A stretch of 64,000 nucleotides of DNA from Minicystis rosea (GCA_001931535.1 CP016211.1:4631573-4695572); one strand, 5' to 3'. Positions 5,852 through 17,822 are shown, counted from the first letter of the stretch. Numbers and translations are program-made. Notes: a model not told the origin generated them from the letters alone.

Positions 5852-6005
5852 AACGGACGCCGAGCTCGTCAAGGGAACCTCCTTGGACGCGGGCAACGTA
5901 GCGCCGGGGCGCCGGGGAGGAACCGGGGCGCAACGAACGACTCCCAGGCAGGGCCGGCGCCGACGGACCGCGGCGTGCAGGGGCGCCTCCGCGGCGGCGC
6001 GATCG

Positions 6006-6690
6006 TCACGCGCCCCCGACGCTGGGGCTAAACACATCGGGGCTCGCCGCGTTGCGCGCCATGAACGCAAAGAGCCGCTCTCGCATGGCCTTCATCTCGC
6101 CCTTGCTCGTCGCGAGGAGCCGCTCCCGCCGATGAAATAGGTGACCATGCCGAAATCGATCGGCTGGTGATCCAGCGCGACCCGCTCGAGCGGGCACCGG
6201 AGGTCGGGCGTCTGCATGAACCCGGTGTGGACGAGCACCGGTGCATGCCGCGCCCGAGATCGCGCACTTCGACGCTCTCCTCCAAGGGAACGCGGGGGAC
6301 GTGCTCGGTCAGCACCGTCACGAGGAGCACGGTGTCGTGGAGCGCGCGCGTGCTCCGCGTGGTGCAGCAGGATCGAGGGATGCCGATCGGGGTCGCGGTA
6401 AGGAATACCGCGGTCCCCGGTACGCGCCGCGCGCCGTCGGCAAGGAGCCGCTCGAACCAGGCACGCGAGCGCATCGCCGCTTCGCGCAGCCGTCGACCGA
6501 GCAGCACGCGGCGGCGCTTCCACGTGGACATCAGCGAGAACACGACGACGGCGGCGACGAGGGGGACGTAGCCGCCCTGTACGAGCTTGGTCAGGTTGGC
6601 GCCGAAGAAGGGCAGGTTGAACGAGAGCAAGAGCAGGAGCACGGAGAGTGCTTTTGCCAGGGGCCAGCCCCAGCTCTGCCGGGTGACGAG
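6006..6690 (-). pseudogene. kup: Kup/HAK/KT potassium transporter, C-terminal third only, with at least 2 frameshifts
   Basis: Three minus-strand frames give consecutive Kup C-terminal motifs: RQSWGWPLAKALSVLLLLLSFNLPFFGANLTKLVQGGYVPL...TWKRRR...VPGTAVFLT; then PSILLHHAEHARA / LHDTVLLVTVLTEHVPRVP; then HTGFMQTPD...FGMVTYFIG / WRERLFAFMARNAA. No N-terminal 12-TM core lies upstream. Confidence 0.65.
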
Positions 6691-6719
6691 AAAGCGCGGC
6701 GGGGGCGCGGATCGGTCAT

Positions 6720-7062
6720 CAGCGCGCTCGACCGAGAAGTCGTGCGTCGCGCTCGAACGCCTCCGGAATGGGCTCGGGCGCGCCGCGCGGCAACCCTCTC
6801 GAGATCTCGTCGTAAGGGCTGGGATCGGGCGGATCGACGACGATCTCGACCAGCACCTGATCGAACAAGCGCAGGAGCTCGGCGTCGGCGTGGAGCTCCG
6901 CGCTCCATTGCTCGACGGTCAGCCCGTGCTCGGCGCAGGCGCGCCGGACGATCTCGCAGCCCCCGGCTCCGTCTCGCGGACGATCCCGCACGCCCGGTCG
7001 GCGACGATCGCCTCCTCGATGTCGAGGATGACAGCCCCAATGTCTGCTCGATCGACGTCCAC
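6720..7062 (-). CDS. Hypothetical protein fragment (possibly frameshifted)
   Basis: Minus-strand GTG 7062 gives VDVDRADIGAVILDIEEAIVADRACGIVRETEPGAA, then a +1 frame gives EIVRRACAEHGLTVEQWSAELHADAELLRLFDQVLVEIVVDPPDP. Codon usage is gene-like but there is no recognisable family. Confidence 0.2.
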
Positions 7063-7311
7063 GCCCTCTGTTCAGCAAACGGCGGACCGCGCGCTCGCAG
7101 CGCTCGTGGTCATGGCCGCTGGCCAGCCTGGGCACCGACGGGCTCCCCCATTGCCATCGGGGGATTCGACACCACAGCCACGACCGGGAGAGGAGCCAGG
7201 CACTGGCGAGCTGACGAACAGCGCACCCGTTTCCGTGCCGCCGGACACCGACGTGCAGAATGCGGCGGCGACGAGAGCAGCCAGAGCGCTTCGGCCGCGA
7301 GGGAAAGCGCC

Positions 7312-9318
7312 ATGAGAACCGTCGAGTCGATCCACATCGATCCCGTCCACGATCGCGACCCCAAGAACCTCGCAGCCGACGCCTCTGCCTTGCGCGCCCT
7401 CGCGCAGGCCGCCGTCAGCGTGGAGCTGTTCACGATCCCGCTCTACATGGTGCCCTTGTACTCGATTCAGGGCATGCACCAGATCAACGCCTCCGAACAG
7501 ACGTTCTACAAGGGACGCTGGTGGCCCGGGGCAGCAACGACGCACTCGCCGACGAGCGCCAACGAGCGCGCCTTCAACATCCTCTTCAGCGTCTTCATCC
7601 AGGAGATGCTGCACCTCCAGCTCGCCGGCAACCTCGCCACGAGCATGGGCGTCACGCCGACCTTCACCAGCTCGATCCTCCAGACCGAGAGCGATGGCTG
7701 GAAGTGCTTCGGCCCCGACAACACCGTCATTCCCCACATCATCGATCTGCGCGACACGACCACCGTCACCGATGTCAAAGTCGCGCTCGGACCGCTGAAC
7801 GCCGCTCGGATCGAGCTCTTCCTCGCAGTCGAGGCGCCGGAGGGCCAGGCCAGGCAGCGCATCAATCCCGACAAGCTCGACGAGTACTTCCCCGCCGTGC
7901 CGTTCGCCGGCTGGAGCTCTGACATGACCGAGGCCGATCTGCCGATGTTTGGGACCATCGGATACATGTACGAGTGCATGGTTCATTACATGACCATGCG
8001 ATATAGCGACGGGACCACGCTCTGGCAGCACGTCTATGCGCCGAGCTCGGTCCAGCGCGAGCTGTTCAACACGCCGACCGGCGGGCACCCCATGCCCGAG
8101 TACCCCGGCATCTCGGCCGTGCTCCCGACGATCGGCGCGGAGGAGGCGCTCGGCGCCGCGGTCGACATCATCAGCGCGATCACGGACCAGGGCGAGGGCC
8201 GAACGATCACCCCGCCGCTGCGCGCGGTGCTGCTCGGCCACGGGGAGGCGCTCGCGTCCCTGGCAAACGAGGTCGCGACCGACTACCGCTCGTCCCGCAA
8301 GGGCCTGACCATCGATTACCCGAGCTACGACGACGACGGCCACCTCGCGCCCTCTGCAGACGCAGAAGCTCGCTTCGAGAACGACCGCAAGGATCACTAC
8401 GCGCGCATCCTCGAGATCAAGGAAGAGCTGCTCCCCGAGCTCGTGACCTGGGACGCGTGGCACGCCTCGCGCGGCGCGGCCCCATGGACGGCCAGGGACC
8501 TCACGATCGGCGACACCGACGAGGCCAGTGGCAACATCCCCAGGGCGGCCGAGGTCGCCGCGGCGCTGAGCCGGCTCAAGGCCAAGAACGCCGACGGCAG
8601 CGTGCTGCGGCAGCTCAGCCAGGTCGCCGCCGGCGCCATCGCCGGGGTCACCCGCGCGCTCGATGACTATTGGAAGGACCCGAACGTCGGTTTTCCCTAT
8701 CCCTCGATGGCCGGCTCCGGAGATCGCGTGTCGATTTGCTGGGCCGTGCTCGGCCAGGCCCCGGACCTCGCGCTGGGCATCGAGCAGCCCAGAAAGCACG
8801 CGCTCTATCACGCCTGCCAAGGCCTCGACCTCGAGCACCCCGGCGCCGGCGAGATGCCCGCGGTCACGACCTACCACACGTGCAAGGGCTCGAACGCCTG
8901 CAAAGCCCAGGGCGGTTGCGGCTACGTGCAATCGGTGGAGGGCGGCGGGAGCTGCCGCGGGGGCGGGGGCGGGGGCGCGACCAGTTGCGGCACGACCATC
9001 ACGTCCCAGGCGAGCTGCGGCCATCGAGGGATGCTCTACAGCGCGCCGACCGACAACAAGTGCGGTGCTTTGGGCGGCTGCGCCGTCCCCGTCTCGGCCT
9101 CGCAGCTTTACCCGTCGAGCGGCGAGATGGCGCTGTTCGACATCAAGGCCGACGGCCCGCCCAAACCCATCGGCACGATACCATTCACCTACGGCGAGCC
9201 CGTCTACGACGTCGCCTGGAGGGCCTATTGCGAGGTCCTCAGGGCGCGCGGCGAGAGCCCGCCGAGCGCGCCGCCTCCCGCCGACGATCTGCGTCTGGCC
9301 TTCCCACCCTCGACATGA
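7312..9318 (+). CDS. Ferritin-like (PF12902-type, ExxH di-iron motif) domain protein with a C-terminal 11-Cys module; candidate substrate/partner of the DUF692-DUF2063 enzymes
   Basis: ATG 7312 with a GAGGGA RBS, 668 aa. N-terminus: [25 protein letters not shown]...[17 protein letters not shown] (ferritin-like helices, ExxH). C-terminus: [96 protein letters not shown]. No signal peptide. The stop TGA overlaps the start of the next gene (ATGA). Confidence 0.75.
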
Positions 9319-10235
9319 CGATGGATGCTGCCCGCCTCGGTATGCCCCACCTCGGCTTCGGTCTCGGGCTCCGGTCATGCCACTTCCACCATCTGCTCCG
9401 GCACCCGGCCCGGGTCGATTGGTTCGAGATCATCAGCGAGAACTTCATGGATGATCACGGCTTCGCGCGTCACGTGCTCTCGACGCTGGCGCGCTCCCAT
9501 CCGATCGTCATGCACGGCGTCTCGCTTTCGATTGGCTCGTCCGATCCGCTCGACATGGACTACCTCGCTGGGCTCCGCGCGCTCGCCGCGTGGATCGAGC
9601 CCTCCTGGATCTCGGATCACCTCTCCTGGACCGGCGTGGCCGGGTACAACACCCACGATCTGATGCCCATGCCGCTCACCGAGGAGGCCCTGGATCACGT
9701 CGCCGAGCGCGTGCTCCGCGTGGAGGACTTCATGGGGAGGCCGCTCGTGCTCGAGAACCCGAGCACCTATGTCGAATACGTCGCTTCCACCATCCCGGAG
9801 TGGGAGTTTCTGTCCGCGCTCTGCGAGCGGACCGGCTGCGGCCTGCTCCTCGACGTGAACAACGTCTTCGTGTCGTCGTTCAATCACGGTTTCGACCCCG
9901 AGCGGTACATCCAGGGCCTGCCGCACGATCGGATCGTGCAGATCCACATCGCCGGCCCGACGTCTTTCGACCGCTACCTCGTGGACACCCACGATCACCC
10001 CGTGCCCACGCCCGTCTGGCGCCTCTATCGCTTGGCGCAGGAGCGGACGGGCGGCGTCTCGACGCTGCTCGAGTGGGACGCGGCGATCCCCGCATATCCG
10101 GATCTCGTCGCCGAGCTCGACAAGGCGCGCGCCGTGCTTGCAAATCCGCGCGAGCTGCCCGACGTGCCGCTCTCGGGCCCCGTGCGCGACGACACCCCCA
10201 TGACTCACGGAGTGATTCATGACCTCGTCCCGTGA
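9315..10235 (+). CDS. DUF692 (UPF0276) TIM-barrel protein, MbnB/HvfB/BufB/TglH-like multi-iron peptide-modifying enzyme
   Basis: [28 protein letters not shown]...[14 protein letters not shown]...[18 protein letters not shown]...[11 protein letters not shown]...[12 protein letters not shown]...[19 protein letters not shown]...QIHIAGP is the canonical DUF692 motif series. It is translationally coupled to the upstream gene. Confidence 0.85.
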
Positions 10236-11172
10236 CGGCGCGCTGTCGCTCTCCGCGCTCCAGGACTGGCTGCGGCTCGCGGTGACCACGCCAGGCGGCC
10301 TCACCGCTGGGCTACGCCGCGCGCGCGAGCGCTACGGCGAGGCGCGGACGATCTGCGTCCCGGAGGGCGCCGACGCGGGTGAGCGGCTCTCGATCTACGC
10401 ACGCGGTTACGTCGATCGCCTGCTCGCCTGTCTCCGGGCCGACTATCCGGCCGTGCGCGCGCTGGTGGGCGACGCGCTCTTCGATAGCTTCGCGACCGGC
10501 TACTTCGGGACACGGCCGCCGCAGCACCATAGCCTCTTCATGCTCGGCGCCGGCTTCGCCGACCATCTCGAGCGGACGCGCCCTCCCGACGATGTCCTGC
10601 CCGAAGAACAGCGCTCGCTCGTGCGGCTACCGATCGATCTCGCCCGCGCCGAGCGGGCCCGGATCGAGGCGCTCCGTGCGCCGGGGCTCCCGAACGACGA
10701 GGGCGCGTGCGTCGATGAGCTCCGCGTCGTGGCCGCGCCGTGCCTGCGGGTGGTCGCGCTTGGGCACGACGTGCGCGGCTTCCTGTCGGCCGTCGATCGC
10801 GGCGAGGCGCCCGCCGTTCCCGAGGCGCGGCCTTCGCTGCTCGCCGTCAGCCGCGTCGCGTATCGGCTCGTGCTGGCCGATCTCGCGCCCTGGCAGCAAC
10901 GGGCGCTGGCGAGCTGCGGCAGCCCGCGTTCGGTGGTCGCGCTGGCGGAGGAGGTCGCTGCTGCGTCGGGCGAGGACAGGGGCGCGGCGCTGGCGGATCT
11001 CCTGCTCTGGCTGCCCACGGCAGAGGGGCTCGGGATGGTGTCGTTGACGCGCAACGGTCCGGCCAGCGCGCCCTCCGACGGTCACTCCCATGCCGGACCT
11101 GCACGAGCACACCGCCTCCTTTTCGATCTGGTCCCAGTCTTCGCCCCAGCCCCGCTCCCTGGCGCGCGGTGA
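10219..11172 (+). CDS. DUF2063-family protein (HvfC/BufC/MbnC-like partner of DUF692 enzymes)
   Basis: ATG 10219 overlaps the DUF692 3' end by 17 nt. [61 protein letters not shown] matches the conserved N-terminal DUF2063 core. The C-terminal half is divergent. Confidence 0.8.
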
Positions 11173-11181
11173 ACGACTCCT

Positions 11182-11300
11182 TTAGAGCCCGAGGCTGACG
11201 GTGTTCACCGTGACTCCGCTGCTCGACAGCTCCGCCGCCAGGCTCACGGTCATGTTGATGATGGCCGCCGGTAGCTCTGCGCCGAACATCGAGCGCGCCA
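11182..11300 (-). pseudogene. Short-chain dehydrogenase/reductase internal fragment (about 40 aa)
   Basis: The ORF 11182..11676 C-terminus reads AELPAAIINMTVSLAAELSSSGVTVNTVSLGL then a stop. It resembles the SDR YxxxK / NAVSPG region but lacks the N-terminal and C-terminal parts. Confidence 0.25.
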
Positions 11301-11548
11301 TCGATCTCGAGATGGCGAAGCGCGGCCCACGAGGTGGCCAATAGACGATGTGCGGAACTCTGCGATTGCTGACCTGCGCCTTGGCGCGGCGGAATTGACG
11401 CCAGGGGTCACGCTCGCCCCGGCGGGTGCTGACGATCGAGCCGCTCGGAGGCCTTGCGCACGGTCTCAAGAGCGCGACGCACGCCGGGCGTCCACGCCGC
11501 CAGATCGACCCCGAGCGTGAGGCCGGCACGAGCTCGCAGCTCGTTGAG

Positions 11549-11640
11549 CCTCGGTACCAGGTATCTGCCGCTCGGTACCAGGTGGCGATACCCGGTGCGG
11601 AGCGGTATCCGATACCCGGTACCGAGCGGGTATCCGTTCG
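11549..11640. repeat. Palindromic GGTACC/GGTATC-type tandem repeat locus A
   Basis: ctcggtaccaggt occurs twice with a 21-bp period, followed by gcggtatccgatacccggtaccgagcgggtatccg, which holds a GATACCCG / CGGGTATC inverted repeat. Related to loci B and C. Confidence 0.6.
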
Positions 11641-11721
11641 GGAAGCCTTATGCCGGGGCTCGTCGGGATGGGACATGGGTGGACGCTGCTATCCAGCGTC
11701 CAGCGCGATGGCAAGGCGGCG

Positions 11722-12948
11722 CTACGGCCGGAGCGTCACCGGGGTCGCGTCGACCTTGATCCGAAACAGCGCGTACGGCCCCTCGCGGAGATCGCGCCCC
11801 TCGTGGTACTCGGGCTGGCGATCTAGCTGGTTGACGGTCACGTAGAGATACCCGTCGGTCGCCAGGGCGAGCGTGTCGGGCCAGATGAGGCGCGGATCGG
11901 AGACGAGGATCTCGTCCGTGCCGTCGGCCAGCCGGCGGTGGATGGCGTGGTGCTCGTAGTCGGTGAGGTAGAGGCGCCCCTGCCGGTCGGACTCGAGCCC
12001 ATCCGACGCATAGCCGATGTCGCCGTGATCGATCACGGTGTAGCCGACGTCGTCCTCGCTCACCGACTCGTTCGCGAGTGCATCCGTGGAGACGCTGTAA
12101 AGGTGGTGGCTCATCAGCGGGCGGTAATACAGTGTCTTCCCGTCCGCGGAGATCGCGATCCCGTCCGCGCCCACCTTGGGCGCGGTCGTGATGCCGCGCG
12201 GCGATCGGCGGAGCAGGGGCGCTCCTTCCACCCTGGCGACGAAGCCCGGATCGGCCTTCGTGGACGGGTGATCGTGGAGCCGCCGGAAGGCGTGGCCGGT
12301 GGCGATGTCGACGACGATGATCGCGTTGGGCCCGCGCGCCGCCGAGTCGGTGACGTACGCCGTCCCCTCCTCGCCGCGCGTGAGATCGAAGCGGATGTCG
12401 TTGAGGTACGAGGTGGGGAGCGCCACGTCCGGCCAGAGATGGATGATCTGCGCGGCCCGGTTTTCGCGGAGATCGACCACCACCAGCTTGGGCGTGTCTT
12501 GCAGGTTCTCGCGCCAGTTGATGTTGCCGGAGTCGACGAGCCAGAGCCGATTGATGGGGTCGACGACGGCGCTCTGCACGGAGACCAGCCGGAAAGGCGC
12601 CTTTTCCTCGTCGAGCTGGTTCATGCGGAGATCGGGGATGGGCCGGAGCCATCCACCGGTGAGCTCGGCGGCGGTGAGCGCCACGGGATCGTTCCAGCGG
12701 GGGAACGAGAGGAAGATCCGCTGTTCCTGAGACACCGTGATCCCCGTGGGCATGGCCCCGGTGAAGAAGGCCACGGGCTCGAGCGCGTCCGAGAGCGGGC
12801 CGCGTGCGCCCGCGGCGCGGGCCAGCTTGGTGGCGTCATAGGGAATCGTGGATGGCTTGGCCGTCGTCTGCTCGCCGCTCTGGCACGCCGCGAGGGCCAG
12901 GACTGCCACCGGGAGAACACGTGACATCGGATGTCTGGAGGGGCTCAT
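11722..12948 (-). CDS. Major royal jelly protein / yellow family (PF03022-like) lipoprotein
   Basis: ATG 12948 (AGGAAAA 8 nt upstream), 408 aa. MSPSRHPMSRVLPVAVLALAACQSGE carries a lipobox. Beta-propeller-like repeats (WLVDSGNINW..., AYVTDSAARGPNAIIVVD, LYLTDYEHHAIHR) are typical of MRJP/yellow proteins. Confidence 0.7.
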   Translation of the reverse strand: MSPSRHPMSRVLPVAVLALAACQSGEQTTAKPSTIPYDATKLARAAGARGPLSDALEPVAFFTGAMPTGITVSQEQRIFLSFPRWNDPVALTAAELTGGWLRPIPDLRMNQLDEEKAPFRLVSVQSAVVDPINRLWLVDSGNINWRENLQDTPKLVVVDLRENRAAQIIHLWPDVALPTSYLNDIRFDLTRGEEGTAYVTDSAARGPNAIIVVDIATGHAFRRLHDHPSTKADPGFVARVEGAPLLRRSPRGITTAPKVGADGIAISADGKTLYYRPLMSHHLYSVSTDALANESVSEDDVGYTVIDHGDIGYASDGLESDRQGRLYLTDYEHHAIHRRLADGTDEILVSDPRLIWPDTLALATDGYLYVTVNQLDRQPEYHEGRDLREGPYALFRIKVDATPVTLRP

Positions 12949-13507
12949 GGGCTTTTCCTGCTCATGGCAGGACCATGCAACGCCCAGGCCGAGCGAGCGG
13001 CCCCGGCGATCGGTGCGACGGAAAGCCGAGCGCGTCAGCGATAACGCTCGTACGGCGCGTCGATGCCTCTGTCGCGGACCTCTTCGAGGAAGCGCCACAT
13101 GTCCGGCTGCGAGCCGTCGACGTCCGTGACGCCGTACTCCCCCGCGAGCTGGCTGGAGGTGAGCGAATGCTGGTTCCACCGCGCGGTGGGCGTCGGAAGC
13201 CAGCGCGACGACCGCGCGCCCCGCGTAGCGCGGCGACTCGGAGAGCGCGAAATCGGGGGGCGCGTGGCCCTTCAGGGCGTCGCGCCAGTTGTCCTCCTTC
13301 ACGCCGAAGGCCTGGGTCGATTATTGCGGCGCTGACGCCACCGGCCGCTTTCTGCTGCAAGAAAACTCCGGATCGAGGGCGCGATCGCCAACCTGCTGTT
13401 CGGCGAGCTCAAGGCCCCAATTCGCACGCTCCAGAGAAACATTGCGATTCGTCGCTGCACCCGTCTCTGGTCATGCCGAGCCACCGGGCGAGAGCATCGA
13501 TCCCCCA

Positions 13508-14006: not shown

Positions 14007-14470
14007 TCATCGTGTGGTCAAGCCGCGCGCGCCCGCGTCACGCGGCGATCCCCTCCGCTGGTCGCCGCGGGCGCCGGGCGTGCCCCACGCCGCATCCCAC
14101 GCAAGCCACGGGCGCGCGCGCGTCTCGGACGCGGCGATGAGCGCGCGCAGCCGTGGCACGACCGTGAAGATCGATTCGGGCGTGGTGCCCGCGGGACGCG
14201 GCGGCGTCGGGAGCTCGCAGAGCTCCGAGCGCACCACTTCGGCGCCCGAGAGGAGCACCTCGGCGTACGTCTTGTCGATGGGCGTCTGCACGGCGCCATC
14301 CGCGCTCAGCATGAACTCGTCGCGCATGGCGCCCGTGCGCAGGACCTTCCGGCGCCCGTAGCTCCACCATGCGGCCTCGTGCTGGTGGCCGACGAGGTAG
14401 AGATCGTAGCGGTCGTCCTCCGTTGCGCGGCGCTGGAAGTGGTCGCCCATCCACGCCGCGGAGGCGGGCG
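14007..14470 (-). pseudogene. Calcineurin-like metallophosphoesterase, C-terminal remnant
   Basis: The ORF 14007..15338 C-terminus reads WMGDHFQRRATEDDRYDLYLVGHQHEAAWWSYGRRKVL...DGAVQTPIDKTYAEVLLSGAEVV; GHxH is the MPP motif. Upstream, the frame runs antisense to the plus-strand genes and is not MPP-like. Confidence 0.4.
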
Positions 14471-15222
14471 CGACCACGGCGCGCTTCGTCACCCTCGACG
14501 CCGGCCGGGAGCCGCTGGCCTTCGCCGGGGGCGACCTGGCCGTGGGCCTGCACGCCTGCGGCGCGCTCGGCGATCGGCTGGTGACCGCGGCCATCGCCGC
14601 CGGCTGCGACGTGGCGCTCGTCTCCTGCTGCCCGCAGAAGATCGACGCCCCGGTCCGCGCCCCGCTCTCGCGCGCCGGCGCCTCGCTCCACCTCCGGCGG
14701 GAGACGCTGGGCCTGGCCAACCTCACCGCACGGCCCGTCGGCGTGGAGACCAGCCTGGAGGCCACCCTCGCGGCGCGGGAAGCGCGCCACGCGCTCCACC
14801 TCCTGCTCCGCGGGCGAGGCGTGACCCTCACGCCGGGCGAGGAGATGCGCGGCATCAACCGCCGTCGCGCCCACGCCGGCCTCGCCGCCCCGGCCCTCTC
14901 GATGCGCGGCCTCCCCCCCGCCGGCGACGCCGAGCTCCGCGCCTTCGAGGCCGAGGCCCGCCGCCGGTACGCCCGCGTCCGCCGCCTCTCCCTCCCCCGC
15001 AACATGCTGGCCCGCCTGGTGGAGCTCGCCGTGGTGCTGGACCGCGCCGCAGCGCTGGAGGAGCACGGAGCCGCCGTGCCCGTCCTCACCATCTTCGACC
15101 GCGCCGTCACCCCCCGCAACGTGGCCCTCTTCGCCAGCCACGCCCCGACCGCCTCCCCTGACGCCCGCGACGCTGCGGTGGTGGAGGTGATCGGTGGGGC
15201 GCGCGCTACACTTCGCCTCGAC
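14410..15222 (+). pseudogene. Class I SAM-methyltransferase (Methyltransf_32-like), C-terminal remnant
   Basis: Frame 1 from just after the stop at 14407-14409 reads ...AFAGGDLAVGLHACGALGDRLVTAAIAAGCDVALVSCCPQKI... (a GLHACG motif). The N-terminal SAM-binding part is missing. Confidence 0.4.
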
Positions 15223-16137
15223 ATGGGCGATCCGCTGACCGACATCTTGCAGCTCACGCGGGCGCAGTCCGTGATCACCGGCGGCTTCGCGGTCGGTGGG
15301 GACTTCGCGTTCCGGTTTCGCTCGCACGCGAAGATCAAGTTCTACAGCGTCGACGGCACGTGCTGGCTGCGCCGCGGGACCGGGACCGACGCGGTCGAGC
15401 TGGAGCGCGGCGACGTGCTCCTGCTCACGAGTGACGACAGCTTCGTGCTCGCGAGCGGCCTGGGCGTCCCTCCGGTGGAGGTCTGTCCCGTGTTCGAGAG
15501 CCATCCCGGGGGCGTCACCGCCGGCGCCGGCGCGACGTGCTCGCTGCTGGTCGGCGTGATCTCGTTCGACCCCGCGTTCGCCGACCTGCTGGGCGACGCG
15601 CTGCCTCCGTTCGTCCACGTCCGCGCCGCAGCGCCGGAGTCCGCCGCGCTCCGCTGGATGCTCGAGCGGATCGAGCGCGAGCAACGCGCGCGGCTGCCCG
15701 CGGCGGGCGCCGCGTCCGCCGAGCTCGCGCAGCTGGTGCTCATCGAGGCGCTGCGCGCGAGCGCCGCCGAGGGCGAGGCCCTGCGGCCGGGCTGGTTCCG
15801 GGCCATGCGCGACGAGCGGGTCGGCCGCGCGCTGCGCCTGATGCACGGCCGACCCGACCACGAGTGGACCCTGGCCGAGCTCGCGCGCGCGGCGGCGATG
15901 TCGCGCGCATCGTTCGCGGCCCGGTTCAAGGCGGTCGCGGGCGCGGCGCCGCTCGCGTACCTGACGCAGTGGAGGATGCGGCTCGCGCGGCGGGCGCTCC
16001 GCGACGGCGACGCCTCGGTGCTCGAGATCGCGCGCTCGCTCGGCTACGCGTCGGAGAGCGCGTTCAGCCACGCGTTCAAGCGCGAGACCGGGCTCGCGCC
16101 GCGCCACTATCGCGCCGCAGCCGCCGGCGCGAGCTAG
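15223..16137 (+). CDS. AraC-family transcriptional regulator with an N-terminal cupin_6 domain
   Basis: ATG 15223. MGDPLTDILQLTRAQSVITGGFAVGGDFAFRFRSHAKIKFYSVDG...(cupin_6 signature)...ESAALRWMLERIEREQ...MSRASFAARFKAVAGAAPLAYLTQWRMRLARRALRDGD...SESAFSHAFKRETGLAPRHYR (AraC HTH). Confidence 0.8.
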   Translation: MGDPLTDILQLTRAQSVITGGFAVGGDFAFRFRSHAKIKFYSVDGTCWLRRGTGTDAVELERGDVLLLTSDDSFVLASGLGVPPVEVCPVFESHPGGVTAGAGATCSLLVGVISFDPAFADLLGDALPPFVHVRAAAPESAALRWMLERIEREQRARLPAAGAASAELAQLVLIEALRASAAEGEALRPGWFRAMRDERVGRALRLMHGRPDHEWTLAELARAAAMSRASFAARFKAVAGAAPLAYLTQWRMRLARRALRDGDASVLEIARSLGYASESAFSHAFKRETGLAPRHYRAAAAGAS

Positions 16138-16204
16138 ACGGACGCGCAAGTCTTCGAGACGCAGGCGCATTCCGTGGCGCGGGGGCGGTCGCTACACCAG
16201 GGGC

Positions 16205-16939
16205 ATGAGCAATCACCTCGGGCAAGCGAACGGCAAACGCGTGGTCATCATCGGCGGAACGAGCGGCATCGGCCTCGCGACGGCGGAGCTGCTGCTGGCG
16301 CGGGGGGCGCGGGTCCTGGTCACGGGGCGCACGGCGGCCAAGCAGGCGGCGGCGCGCGCCGCGCTGAGCGACGCCGCGATCGTCGTCGAGAGCGACGCCA
16401 CGTCGCTTCCGGCGATCGACGCGCTGGTCGAGCGCGTGCGGGCGGAGCTCGGCGCGATCGACGTGCTCTTCGTCAACGCGGGCGTCTCGCGGTGGTCGCC
16501 GTTCGAGGCGACGCCCGAGGCGGTGTACGACGAGCTGCTGGCGGTCAACGTCAAGGGCCCGTACTTCACGATCCAGAAGCTCGCGCCGCTGCTCGCCCCG
16601 GGGAGCGCGATCGTGCTCACCACGTCGGTGGTGAACGTGGTCGGGCTACCGATGCTCAGCGCCTACGCGGCGAGCAAGGCGGCGCTGCGCTCGCTCACGC
16701 GCACCCTCGCGCGCGAGCTCCTGCCGCGCGGGATCCGGGTCAACGCCGTCAGCCCCGGGCCGATCGACACGAGCCCGCTCGAGGATTCGCCGACCAAGAG
16801 GCAGCTGCGCGAGGCGATCCCGATGCAGCGGCTCGGGCGCCCCGAGGAGGTCGCGGCGGCCGTCGCGTTCCTCGCCTTCGACGCGACGTTCACGACCGGC
16901 GCCGAGCTCGCCATCGACGGCGGCGGCACGCAGATCTGA
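16205..16939 (+). CDS. SDR-family NAD(P)-dependent oxidoreductase
   Basis: VVIIGGTSGIGLATAELL (TGxxxGxG), NAG, YAASKAALRSLTRTLA (YxxxK), RVNAVSPGPIDT. 244 aa. Confidence 0.85.
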   Translation: MSNHLGQANGKRVVIIGGTSGIGLATAELLLARGARVLVTGRTAAKQAAARAALSDAAIVVESDATSLPAIDALVERVRAELGAIDVLFVNAGVSRWSPFEATPEAVYDELLAVNVKGPYFTIQKLAPLLAPGSAIVLTTSVVNVVGLPMLSAYAASKAALRSLTRTLARELLPRGIRVNAVSPGPIDTSPLEDSPTKRQLREAIPMQRLGRPEEVAAAVAFLAFDATFTTGAELAIDGGGTQI

Positions 16940-17345
16940 GCCCGCCACCTCCGCCGCCGTGCGCGCGGCGCGCGCCCCCGCGTCGAGCGCCACGGTCGCC
17001 GTGCCCATCCCGCCGGGGATCCGCACCGACATCGTGGCGCGGCCCGGGGTGGAGCCGGTGCTCGCCGACACCAACTTCTTCGCGGCTTCCCCCTCCTCCC
17101 GAGGCCTCGAACGTAGCGAATCCCTGCCCACCGCGCGTCCACGTCGAACCGGCCGTGCAGCAGCGGCTACACGCGCTTCGCGTTGTCGCCCGTGAGGCCG
17201 GCGTCGGCGCCGACCGGAGACGATCGACGCTTCTCCGGCACGGTGTTGGCGTAACGGTTCGCCGCCGTCCTCTTCTTCGCTTGTTCGGGCATGGTGGGTG
17301 CAGCCGGCGCGGCGCCAGCGGCTTCATCCCATCTGTACCCGGTCA

Positions 17346-17414
17346 GCTTCGGATATCGGATATCCGCGGTATCGGATATCCACGGGCTTCGGATATCGGA
17401 TATCCGCGGTATCG
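17346..17414. repeat. Palindromic tandem repeat locus C (2 x 29-bp gcttcggatatcggatatccgcggtatcg, 40-bp period)
   Basis: Perfect 29-bp direct repeat containing GGATATCC / GATATC palindromes. Same family as loci A and B. Confidence 0.65.
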
Positions 17415-17542
17415 AATGCACACCCACGGATTCCGTCGCGCAGGGCCAAGGCATTCGGGGTGGGGCGTCGTCTGCCTCCTCGAGCGCGGCGCACAGGCTG
17501 CATCGTTGGCGCGCCCGCGGTGGGCGCGTTGTGGTAGAACGG

Positions 17543-17705
17543 CGTCGACGATGGATCGCGAGGAAGATCGAATAGTTACATTCTTGTTCGGTCTGGTACT
17601 TCCCTCGGGGGAATGCCACGCCCGAAAACACGAACGGCTACGACCCCTGCGAAAACGCGCGCCATGCGTAAAATTTGGGTTCGTAGCGGTTGGGCTGGGA
17701 TCCAT
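17543..17705. repeat. Composite interspersed element copy 1
   Basis: 17543-17610 matches 13662-13730. 17620-17700 matches 20028-20103 (19-nt identical gcccgaaaacacgaacggc, then about 75% identity including gcgcgccatg...gttggg). Confidence 0.55.
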
Positions 17706-17822
17706 CACGGATGGCAGATAATCGGCAAGAGCAGTTGCCGAGTACCGAGCGGGCGACAGAATCGCGCCCCTCAGGCGTGTCACATCCTGACAGGCTTCGA
17801 TGATCGTCCCCCCATTGGGCGC

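Follow-up and report, generated by a model that had tools for sequence, protein, structure and literature searches.

A bufferin-type gene cassette with a candidate ferritin-coupled, cysteine-rich substrate in Minicystis rosea

The DNA analysed was a stretch of 64,000 nucleotides (nt) from Minicystis rosea (GCA_001931535.1 CP016211.1:4631573-4695572), called the window below. It carries three adjoining genes (Table 1): gene 1 codes for a ferritin-like protein with a cysteine-rich loop near its C-terminus, gene 2 for a multinuclear non-heme iron oxidative enzyme (MNIO) of the BufB type, and gene 3 for a DUF2063-type partner protein. The three genes probably form a self-contained, translationally coupled maturation cassette of the type that acts on bufferins, which are periplasmic copper buffers. 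From the sequence comparisons described here, it is quite likely that the protein encoded by gene 1 is the substrate of the MNIO.

The three genes and their products

Three co-directional genes with overlapping ends had been reported in the initial annotation, and the coordinates proved correct on re-reading: genes 1 and 2 are joined at 9315 by an ATGA start/stop overlap of 4 nt, and genes 2 and 3 overlap by 17 nt from 10219. The in-frame stretch 5' of gene 1 is Arg-rich nonsense, so no N-terminal extension is concealed there. A scan of positions 6000-12000 for promoters and terminators returned nothing beyond expectation, and an Rfam scan of the entire window returned zero matches.

Gene 2 was placed in DUF692 by hidden Markov model (HMM). 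It matched PF05114 (MbnB_TglH_ChrH) over profile positions 2-262 of 263 (E 8e-105; 350.3 bits, cut-off 25) and passed the cut-off of the NCBIfam equivalog NF050167 MNIO_BufB (348.3 bits; cut-off 310). Its scores were under the cut-offs (in brackets) of the other NCBIfam models: HvfB 245 (360), ApyH 103.6 (400), MbnB 48.4 (325) and ChrH 36 (600). The nine MNIO metal-ligand positions are H67, H102, E146, D179, N182, H211, D224, H226 and E254; they lie in the motifs MHG, SDH, LEN, LDVNN, HIAG, DTHD and LLEWD, which align with MbnB (7dz9, 7tcr) and with 3bww. Gene 3 matched PF09836 (DUF2063) over residues 32-117 (E 6e-17; 62.1 bits, cut-off 27.2), so the HMM searches placed genes 2 and 3 in the families to which they had first been assigned. 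The last ~40 residues of gene 3 are not conserved, and a PDB sequence search gave no match, whether gene 3 was entered as one sequence or as a profile.

The gene-1 product was modelled with AlphaFold2 (AF2) on a 50-sequence alignment. The model had a predicted local distance difference test score (pLDDT) of 83 and a predicted template modelling score of 0.88, with a confident helical body from residue 1 to about 500. Invariant residues of the body are E38, E98-x-x-H101, E174 and D292-Q-G-E295-G, which from the sequence look like a carboxylate-rich metal site and not the canonical double ExxH. The canonical di-iron pattern reads E, ExxH, E, ExxH, whereas the fourth position in gene 1 is D292-Q-G-E295. 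Of the earlier description of a ferritin-like domain of the di-iron type, the PF12902 domain and one ExxH were thus retained, and the second ExxH gave way to the invariant DQGEG. The N-terminus passes straight into the first ferritin-fold helix (residues 17-49, pLDDT 95-98), which leaves no room for a signal peptide, and neither a signal peptide nor a hydrophobic N-terminal leader was present in any member of the gene-1 family. The protein had been described as cytoplasmic-looking and non-secreted, and this agrees with the family as a whole; because it carries no Sec signal peptide, it should remain in the cytoplasm.

The cysteines are concentrated in one segment. The 11 cysteines of the C-terminal module were counted as first reported, from C476 to C640. 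The loop reads YHAC502QG ... YHTC524KGSNAC530KAQGGC536GY ... GGGSC548, then a variable Gly/Cys linker, then YSAPTDNKC584GALGGC590. Conservation was computed on 216 non-identical members of the gene-1 family: only C502, C524, C530, C536, C584 and C590 are invariant or nearly so, and C548 is present in 91%. The near-invariant motifs are H500-A-C-Q, H522-T-C-[KR]..., G-G-G-S-C and Y-S-A-P-x-D-N-K-C-x-x-x-G-G-C-A-V-P-I-S-A-S-Q. The linker between C548 and C584 varies from 11 to 114 residues and holds 0-9 further cysteines. In Bacteroidota homologues (P0061, P0096, P0097, L077, L037) it is up to 114 residues long and has 5-9 additional cysteines, set in repeated x-G-C-G-x-x-G units, a growth that recalls the repeat expansion of oxazolin-type and other multi-site MNIO substrates. 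No CxxC pair occurs in residues 476-668, where the spacing is C-x5-C; a rubredoxin-type CxxC...CxxC site is therefore not present.

Residues 523-590, where the cysteines are located, are the sole long low-confidence stretch of the AF2 model (pLDDT <50 at 523-537, 544-572 and 580-590). The loop is modelled with low confidence, yet its motifs are almost invariant across phyla. It is followed by a tail of two strands (604-610 and 618-625) and a helix (631-645), with pLDDT ~80-88. At the extreme C-terminus, R661, P665, P666, S667 and T668 are conserved at 98-99% across phyla in the 216 sequences. A divergent, shorter subfamily of ~576 aa (metagenomic; P0371, P0380, P0381) keeps the ferritin-like body and ends in LRLVLPPS; its loop reads HACQGLDP...HTCASSNDCKNQGGCGYP...GNGGCGAPIPVAQ.

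Table 1. Features of the cassette and of the adjoining DNA (positions counted from the first nucleotide of the window)
Feature	Positions	Strand	Description
Gene 1	7312-9318	+	668 aa, ATG start; open reading frame and translation; proposed substrate and functional product of the cassette
Gene 2	9315-10235	+	306 aa; BufB-type MNIO
Gene 3	10219-11172	+	317 aa; DUF2063-type partner (HvfC/BufC-like)
Shine-Dalgarno-like GAGGGA	7299-7304	+	7 nt 5' of gene-1 ATG; sequence reading
PF12902 ferritin-like domain (gene 1, residues 32-301)	7405-8214	+	Pfam, E 1.4e-20; 74.6 bits, cut-off 22.3
Helical extension of the body (gene 1, residues 302-499)	8215-8808	+	Family-specific, without Pfam match; AF2 helices 329-480, pLDDT ~90
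Cys-rich loop (gene 1, residues 500-590)	8809-9081	+	Proposed MNIO target cysteines; pLDDT <50 in parts
Structured C-terminal element (gene 1, residues 595-668)	9094-9315	+	Beta-hairpin and helix; ends LAFPPST
Extreme C-terminus (gene 1, residues 659-668)	9286-9315	+	Conserved end
kup remnant	6028-6642	-	Truncated Kup K+ transporter
PF03022 protein	11722-13302	-	Major Royal Jelly Protein family
Open reading frame	14038-16170	-	710 aa
Open reading frame	16174-17721	+	515 aa

Distribution of the cassette and its split form

Full-length relatives of gene 1 (~645-770 aa), all with PF12902, formed more than 842 clusters in a protein search, with members in Sorangium, Myxococcus, Nostoc, Ralstonia solanacearum, Chromobacterium, Pseudoduganella, Spartinivicinus and many metagenomes; the Nostoc homologue represents the Cyanobacteria. 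The best match was from Sorangium sp. So ce388 (89%). When one genome per species was scanned, 349 species in at least seven phyla had a relative; they are spread over Myxococcota, Alpha-, Beta- and Gammaproteobacteria, Bacteroidota, Actinomycetota (Saccharothrix) and Acidobacteriota.

For the analysis of gene neighbourhoods 80 loci were kept, 78 of which had DNA downstream of gene 1. Gene-neighbourhood mining for the same fusion, as proposed in the initial annotation, gave a single arrangement: gene 1, MNIO gene and DUF2063 gene followed each other on the same strand in 78/78 informative loci, with median gaps of about +10 nt between genes 1 and 2 and about -8 nt between genes 2 and 3. Since it recurs in every one of these loci across phyla, the arrangement is not a chance juxtaposition. 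The MNIOs beside gene 1 were 57-91% identical to gene 2, and the DUF2063 proteins 27-83% identical to gene 3. Open reading frames (ORFs) of at least 60 aa were clustered over the 80 loci, and no other neighbour (DoxX, sigma/anti-sigma NrsF, transporter, protease) was conserved beyond single genera. It had been noted at the outset that no small precursor ORF with a signal peptide was evident, and in the 78 homologous loci no DUF2282 or BufA2 signal-peptide precursor gene was conserved between the genes or within 900 nt of the cassette. Candidates for a separate small precursor gene, taken from Cys-containing ORFs of 20-110 aa within 900 nt on either side and from the ORFs of at least 60 aa, were conserved within genera only and were rejected.

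In Actinomycetota the parts of gene 1 are found as separate genes. On a Kitasatospora plasmid, an MNIO gene (product 57.5% identical to gene 2) is preceded by a stand-alone ORF that matches gene-1 residues 500-539, and the DUF2063 gene is followed by a separate ORF that matches residues 27-113. In Catenulispora, Actinomadura and Solirubrobacteraceae, the called genes follow the order Cys module, PF05114 MNIO, PF09836 protein and PF12902 protein of 390-431 aa. This split order was found in 4/4 such actinomycete loci examined. The separate PF12902 protein aligned with gene-1 residues 9-296 (23% identity, E 2e-9), ExxH and QGEG included. At least 328 clusters make up the family of the stand-alone Cys module (140-240 aa, 8 conserved Cys), and its named members are nearly all from Actinomycetota; the module has neither a Pfam domain nor a signal peptide. 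Its alignment with the C-terminus of gene 1 reached 97.7% probability in hhalign (E 1.4e-12), with the module motif CATVxHVCHGANECRGQGGCGY against the HTC-type motif, and CRWNGSCASPINESRV against NKCxxFGGCAVPISASQL. Where gene 1 has its PPST end, the stand-alone module reads YPDDLVPxYE, followed by a variable tail.

Because this split form exists, the system can be described as four components, the Cys module, the MNIO, the DUF2063 partner and the PF12902 protein, of which the first and the last are fused in the family to which gene 1 belongs. Fused (78/78) or free (4/4), the Cys module is encoded immediately upstream of the MNIO gene, and in the strictly conserved bufABC order this is the position of the precursor (PMC12452194). 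In a neighbour-joining tree of the MNIOs, rooted on a BufB1 and built with few outgroups and without support values, the 74 MNIOs of fused cassettes were monophyletic, as were the 4 split ones and both groups together, with BufB2 as the nearest sampled relatives.

Nucleotide similarity between the window and So ce388 (90.5%) was confined to 7310-11051; it starts 2 nt before the gene-1 ATG and ends in the 3' part of gene 3. As the flanks are unrelated and non-syntenic, the cassette behaves as a discrete unit. The G+C content of the window is ~70%, with 0.649 at 7001-8000, 0.664 at 9001-10000 and ~0.69-0.77 in the neighbouring DNA. To judge by these sequence features, the cassette looks to have moved or been transferred as a single unit.

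The remnant of kup lies just upstream of the cassette and matches only K_trans positions 391-449 (profile length 454) and K_trans_C positions 1-64 (profile length 151); nothing more of the gene is present. Downstream, on the opposite strand, the Major Royal Jelly Protein family gene has a 68%-identical copy elsewhere in the So ce388 locus. The two long ORFs beyond it lie in a stretch of 74-77% G+C and have no Pfam match at E <= 0.001. On the Pseudoalteromonas piscicida chromid NZ_CP074588.1 (L081), the cassette has a 775-aa homologue of gene 1, and 3' of the cassette (L081 6879-8825) a 648-aa protein is encoded with an N-terminal winged helix (CadC/ToxR-like), a membrane segment and a large C-terminal domain. 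This CadC-like protein was seen beside the cassette in Pseudoalteromonas only and may be a lineage-specific regulator.

Relation of the cysteine module to bufferins and other known systems

BufB and BufC are necessary and sufficient for converting the central cysteines of BufA1 to 5-thiooxazoles, and in Buf2 each of four central cysteines carries a -4 Da change by mass spectrometry (PMC11626156). The modification takes place in the cytoplasm, with the signal peptide dispensable and the core peptide involved in recognition, so that a fused core without a signal peptide is a feasible substrate; mature bufferins bind Cu(I) and Cu(II) very tightly (PMC11626156).

The BufA2 precursors used for alignment came from canonical, plasmid-borne operons of Asticcacaulis, Pseudomonas mandelii and Novosphingobium, whose MNIOs are 51-52% identical to gene 2. 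The consensus of these precursors reads VHCYGVNACKGQNDCKTAxNACKGQGxCKGQGF, and the HTC(K/R) motif of gene 1 has the C-K/R-G-x-N-x-C-K and C-x5-C pattern in common with it. The stand-alone module matched BufA2 in profile-profile comparison (94% probability, E 1.2e-7), and the BufA2 cysteines matched include central ones with the -4 Da modification (PMC11626156). A phmmer search of the C-terminal 174 residues of gene 1 against 1.84 billion representatives found 121 proteins, nearly all relatives of gene 1 or fragments of them; one was a 12-Cys bufferin with a signal peptide (P0379, THTCKGLNACKGQGGC..., E 2e-4). Gene 1 thus has two traits of a bufferin precursor, the Cys motif and the position directly before the MNIO, and lacks three, the Sec signal peptide, the match to a family HMM and the small size (~60-120 aa core vs 668 aa). 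On the Asticcacaulis excentricus plasmid pASEM-1 (L082), buf1 and buf2-type operons stand back to back, the former with DUF2282, DUF692, DUF2063 and DoxX genes and the latter with a BufA2-like gene, DUF692, DUF2063, a sigma factor and two NrsF genes.

The cassette was compared with the Bufferin 2 system of Caulobacter vibrioides and relatives (BufA2/BufB2/BufC2; BUF_6/12Cys). The two have in common the order of substrate, MNIO and DUF2063 partner, an MNIO of BufB type (gene 2 passes the equivalog and is ~50-52% identical to BufB2-type enzymes), and a Cys module with the motif C-x-G-x-N-x-C-K-G/A-Q-G and C-x5-C spacing, the homology of the modules being transitive through the two profile alignments (E 1.4e-12 and E 1.2e-7). 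Unlike BufA2, gene 1 codes for a 668-aa protein without a Sec signal peptide, a PF12902 ferritin-like protein that carries its Cys module as a loop close to the C-terminus; this module is not matched by the PF10048 and BufA HMMs, the cassette is without SigF/NrsF or DoxX genes, and its MNIOs form a clade of their own.

Protein-sized MNIO substrates are known in HvfA of Haemophilus influenzae and in Buf_EGKCG/oxazolins, and bufferin fusions have been described as MerC|Buf, Buf1|Cytochrom_C|FGE-sulfatase and Buf_EGKC|EF-hand chimaeras (PMC11252979, PMC12452194). They are precedents for the proposed role of gene 1: MNIOs are able to act on proteins that are folded or large, and bufferin domains occur in fusions with metal-related domains. 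Unlike gene 1, the described fusions are exported, membrane-anchored or periplasm-facing, and none involves PF12902 (PMC12452194). Neither 'ferritin' nor PF12902 occurs in the text and examined supplements of that survey of the MNIO landscape (PMC12452194). The survey does describe adjamnio-I, a group of signal-peptide-less proteins of 122-293 aa with at least 8 Cys, encoded upstream of an MNIO, for which no ferritin link was made (Antoine et al. 2025, PMC12452194). The stand-alone actinomycete module agrees with it in size (140-240 aa), in its 8 conserved Cys, in having no signal peptide and in standing directly upstream of an MNIO, and may be adjamnio-I, as far as a comparison by description goes. 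Beyond that description, the partner in the split form carries PF09836 and a PF12902 gene follows.

Among PF12902 proteins, CC_0557 (PDB 3hl1) has 317 aa and, unlike gene 1, no Cys module. VioB, a relative with the VioB/StaD/RebD domain, is an enzyme with heme b and catalyses the dimerisation of IPA imine (PMC9705886). In the literature searched, nothing was found that links MNIO, DUF692, DUF2063, bufferins or thiooxazole to ferritin-like, PF12902 or VioB-type proteins or to iminophenyl-pyruvate dimer synthase; its coverage is incomplete and an earlier description is possible. The new architecture first proposed for this enzyme family stands to that extent for the ferritin-MNIO link, and is less secure for the stand-alone actinomycete module, which may already have been described (PMC12452194). 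Within the literature searched, a bufferin-type MNIO system whose proposed protein substrate is intracellular and ferritin-coupled is a new form of a known system.

Rubrerythrin consists of a ferritin-like di-iron domain and a C-terminal rubredoxin Cys4 domain. Gene 1 resembles it, as a functional analogy only, in having a ferritin-fold metal domain followed by a C-terminal cysteine-based site in one chain. It differs in being without CxxC pairs, in having its cysteines in a BufA2-like loop, in having DxxE in place of the second ExxH, and in the dedicated maturation genes that accompany it.

Proposed maturation of the loop, alternatives and significance

That the large ferritin-fused protein is the substrate or a partner of the two enzymes had been proposed initially, and it is supported by the split form, by the homology of the module to BufA2 and by its position before the MNIO gene. 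The following scheme is proposed. Gene 1 would give a helical, ferritin-like protein with a flexible loop of ~70 residues near the C-terminus, which bears BufA2-like C-x5-C motifs and would be anchored to the folded body at both ends. The DUF2063 partner would recruit the BufB-type MNIO to this loop, and the MNIO, with its iron cluster and O2, would carry out 4-electron oxidations by which several loop cysteines become heterocycles of the 5-thiooxazole type (or of the oxazolone/thioamide type). The heterocycles would form a high-affinity site for a soft metal, most probably copper, that stays on the ferritin-like domain inside the cell and works with it. Both the modification of the loop cysteines and the identity of the product were inferred from the established biochemistry of bufferins and HvfA. 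By this analogy, conversion of the loop cysteines to thiooxazole-type metal ligands on a cytoplasmic ferritin-like protein is somewhat favoured, and for a thiooxazole copper site as the product the chances would be about even. Candidate roles for the PF12902 part are those of a di-metal or heme oxidoreductase that the new site would serve, of a tailoring enzyme, or of a metal store.

Several results weigh against this scheme. Gene 1, whole or as its isolated C-terminal 173 aa, had no match to PF10048/DUF2282, to BufA or to any NCBIfam model at E <= 10, so direct HMM membership of the module in DUF2282 or BufA was rejected. The direct hhalign match of gene 1 to BufA2 covered 17 columns (E 0.0012, 19% probability), which makes the link between gene 1 and bufferins a transitive one, and the tree of the MNIOs carries the limits given above. 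Gene 3 scored 11.9 bits against the HvfC equivalog NF050145, a full-length model that takes in the RRE-type C-terminal domain (cut-off 142; E 0.15); 22/23 members of its family matched the NCBIfam HvfC model at E <= 0.01, with a best E of 3.7e-11. Sites for Fur, CueR, CsoR and PerR in the 320 nt 5' of gene 1 scored no better than in shuffled sequence, and since none of these boxes is enriched, the upstream region holds no specific pointer to copper. Finally, the low pLDDT of the loop may reflect a metal-dependent fold (Zn or Fe-S) and not a peptide-like substrate, as far as the model can tell.

In one alternative, gene 1 is an accessory enzyme or partner, the MNIO and DUF2063 proteins act on a precursor encoded elsewhere, and the unmodified loop cysteines bind a structural or redox metal (Zn or Fe-S), like those of rubrerythrin's rubredoxin domain. 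Rubrerythrin does combine a ferritin-like domain with a Cys-rich metal domain at the C-terminus, the Cys module had no match to the bufferin HMMs, and many bufferin precursors are encoded apart from their MNIO genes (PMC12452194). We give this alternative a slim chance, as the module, fused or free, always directly precedes the MNIO, as in bufABC (PMC12452194), is homologous to BufA2 through the actinomycete module, has the C-x5-C spacing of BufA2 in place of rubredoxin CxxC pairs, and has co-diversified with its MNIOs, which form one clade. Gene 1 might instead be a giant precursor of a peptide made by the ribosome and modified after translation (RiPP), with the ferritin-like body as an oversized leader and/or a tailoring enzyme acting in cis, and with the modified loop excised to give a small metallophore for release or export. 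In its favour, RiPP pathways are the classical setting of MNIOs, the model predicts disorder in the loop, as in a core peptide, the precursor position of the split form is taken by the Cys module as a protein of its own (140-240 aa), and there are oxidative enzymes, such as VioB, among PF12902 relatives (PMC9705886). This is nevertheless improbable: neither a protease nor a transporter gene is conserved beside the cassette in the 78 loci, the gene-1 family has no signal peptide, and the ferritin-like fusion is kept across phyla. Conserved, confidently folded sequence lies on both sides of the loop and the C-terminus is invariant, which makes a permanent domain a better description of the loop than a discarded scaffold.

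A further possibility is that gene 1 undergoes MNIO chemistry other than Cys-to-thiooxazole conversion, with the invariant PPST tail at its C-terminus, or some other residue, as the target; known targets of other MNIOs are C-terminal Asp or Cys, Tyr and homocitrulline. The invariant end of gene 1 speaks for it, and the reaction scope of MNIOs is broad in the part of the literature covered. We regard it as very improbable, given that gene 2 is above the BufB cut-off and far under those of ApyH, MbnB and ChrH, that its nearest sampled relatives are BufB2 enzymes, and that the stand-alone module keeps the Cys motifs without the PPST end.

If the loop is modified as proposed and stays on the protein, the MNIO and DUF2063 pair might act as a cofactor-maturation system and not as a pathway to a natural product. 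It would build a thiooxazole-metal centre on the tethered loop of a cytoplasmic ferritin-like di-metal protein, and the centre would then serve the ferritin-like site as an electron relay or as a metal or substrate site, by a logic like that of rubrerythrin. We put this forward tentatively, as an unlikely reading; if true, it would be a protein-derived cofactor of a new enzyme class in ~350 species, present as separate subunits in actinomycetes.

Export is common to the bufferin-type MNIO substrates that have been characterised (bufferins, HvfA and oxazolins). If the proposed scheme holds, the cassette would bring bufferin chemistry into the cell and onto a full-size protein that is permanently coupled to a ferritin-fold metal domain, MNIOs would mature intracellular proteins, and the PF12902 subfamily would gain a first functional handle. 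The system is compact, with three genes, and occurs in culturable bacteria (Chromobacterium, Janthinobacterium, Ralstonia solanacearum, Myxococcus and Pseudoalteromonas); Streptomycetaceae and other actinomycetes offer the split form, with four genes, as a natural control. For genome mining it suggests a rule: if no small precursor ORF can be seen, the substrate may be the very domain that is fused to the MNIO or lies next to it.

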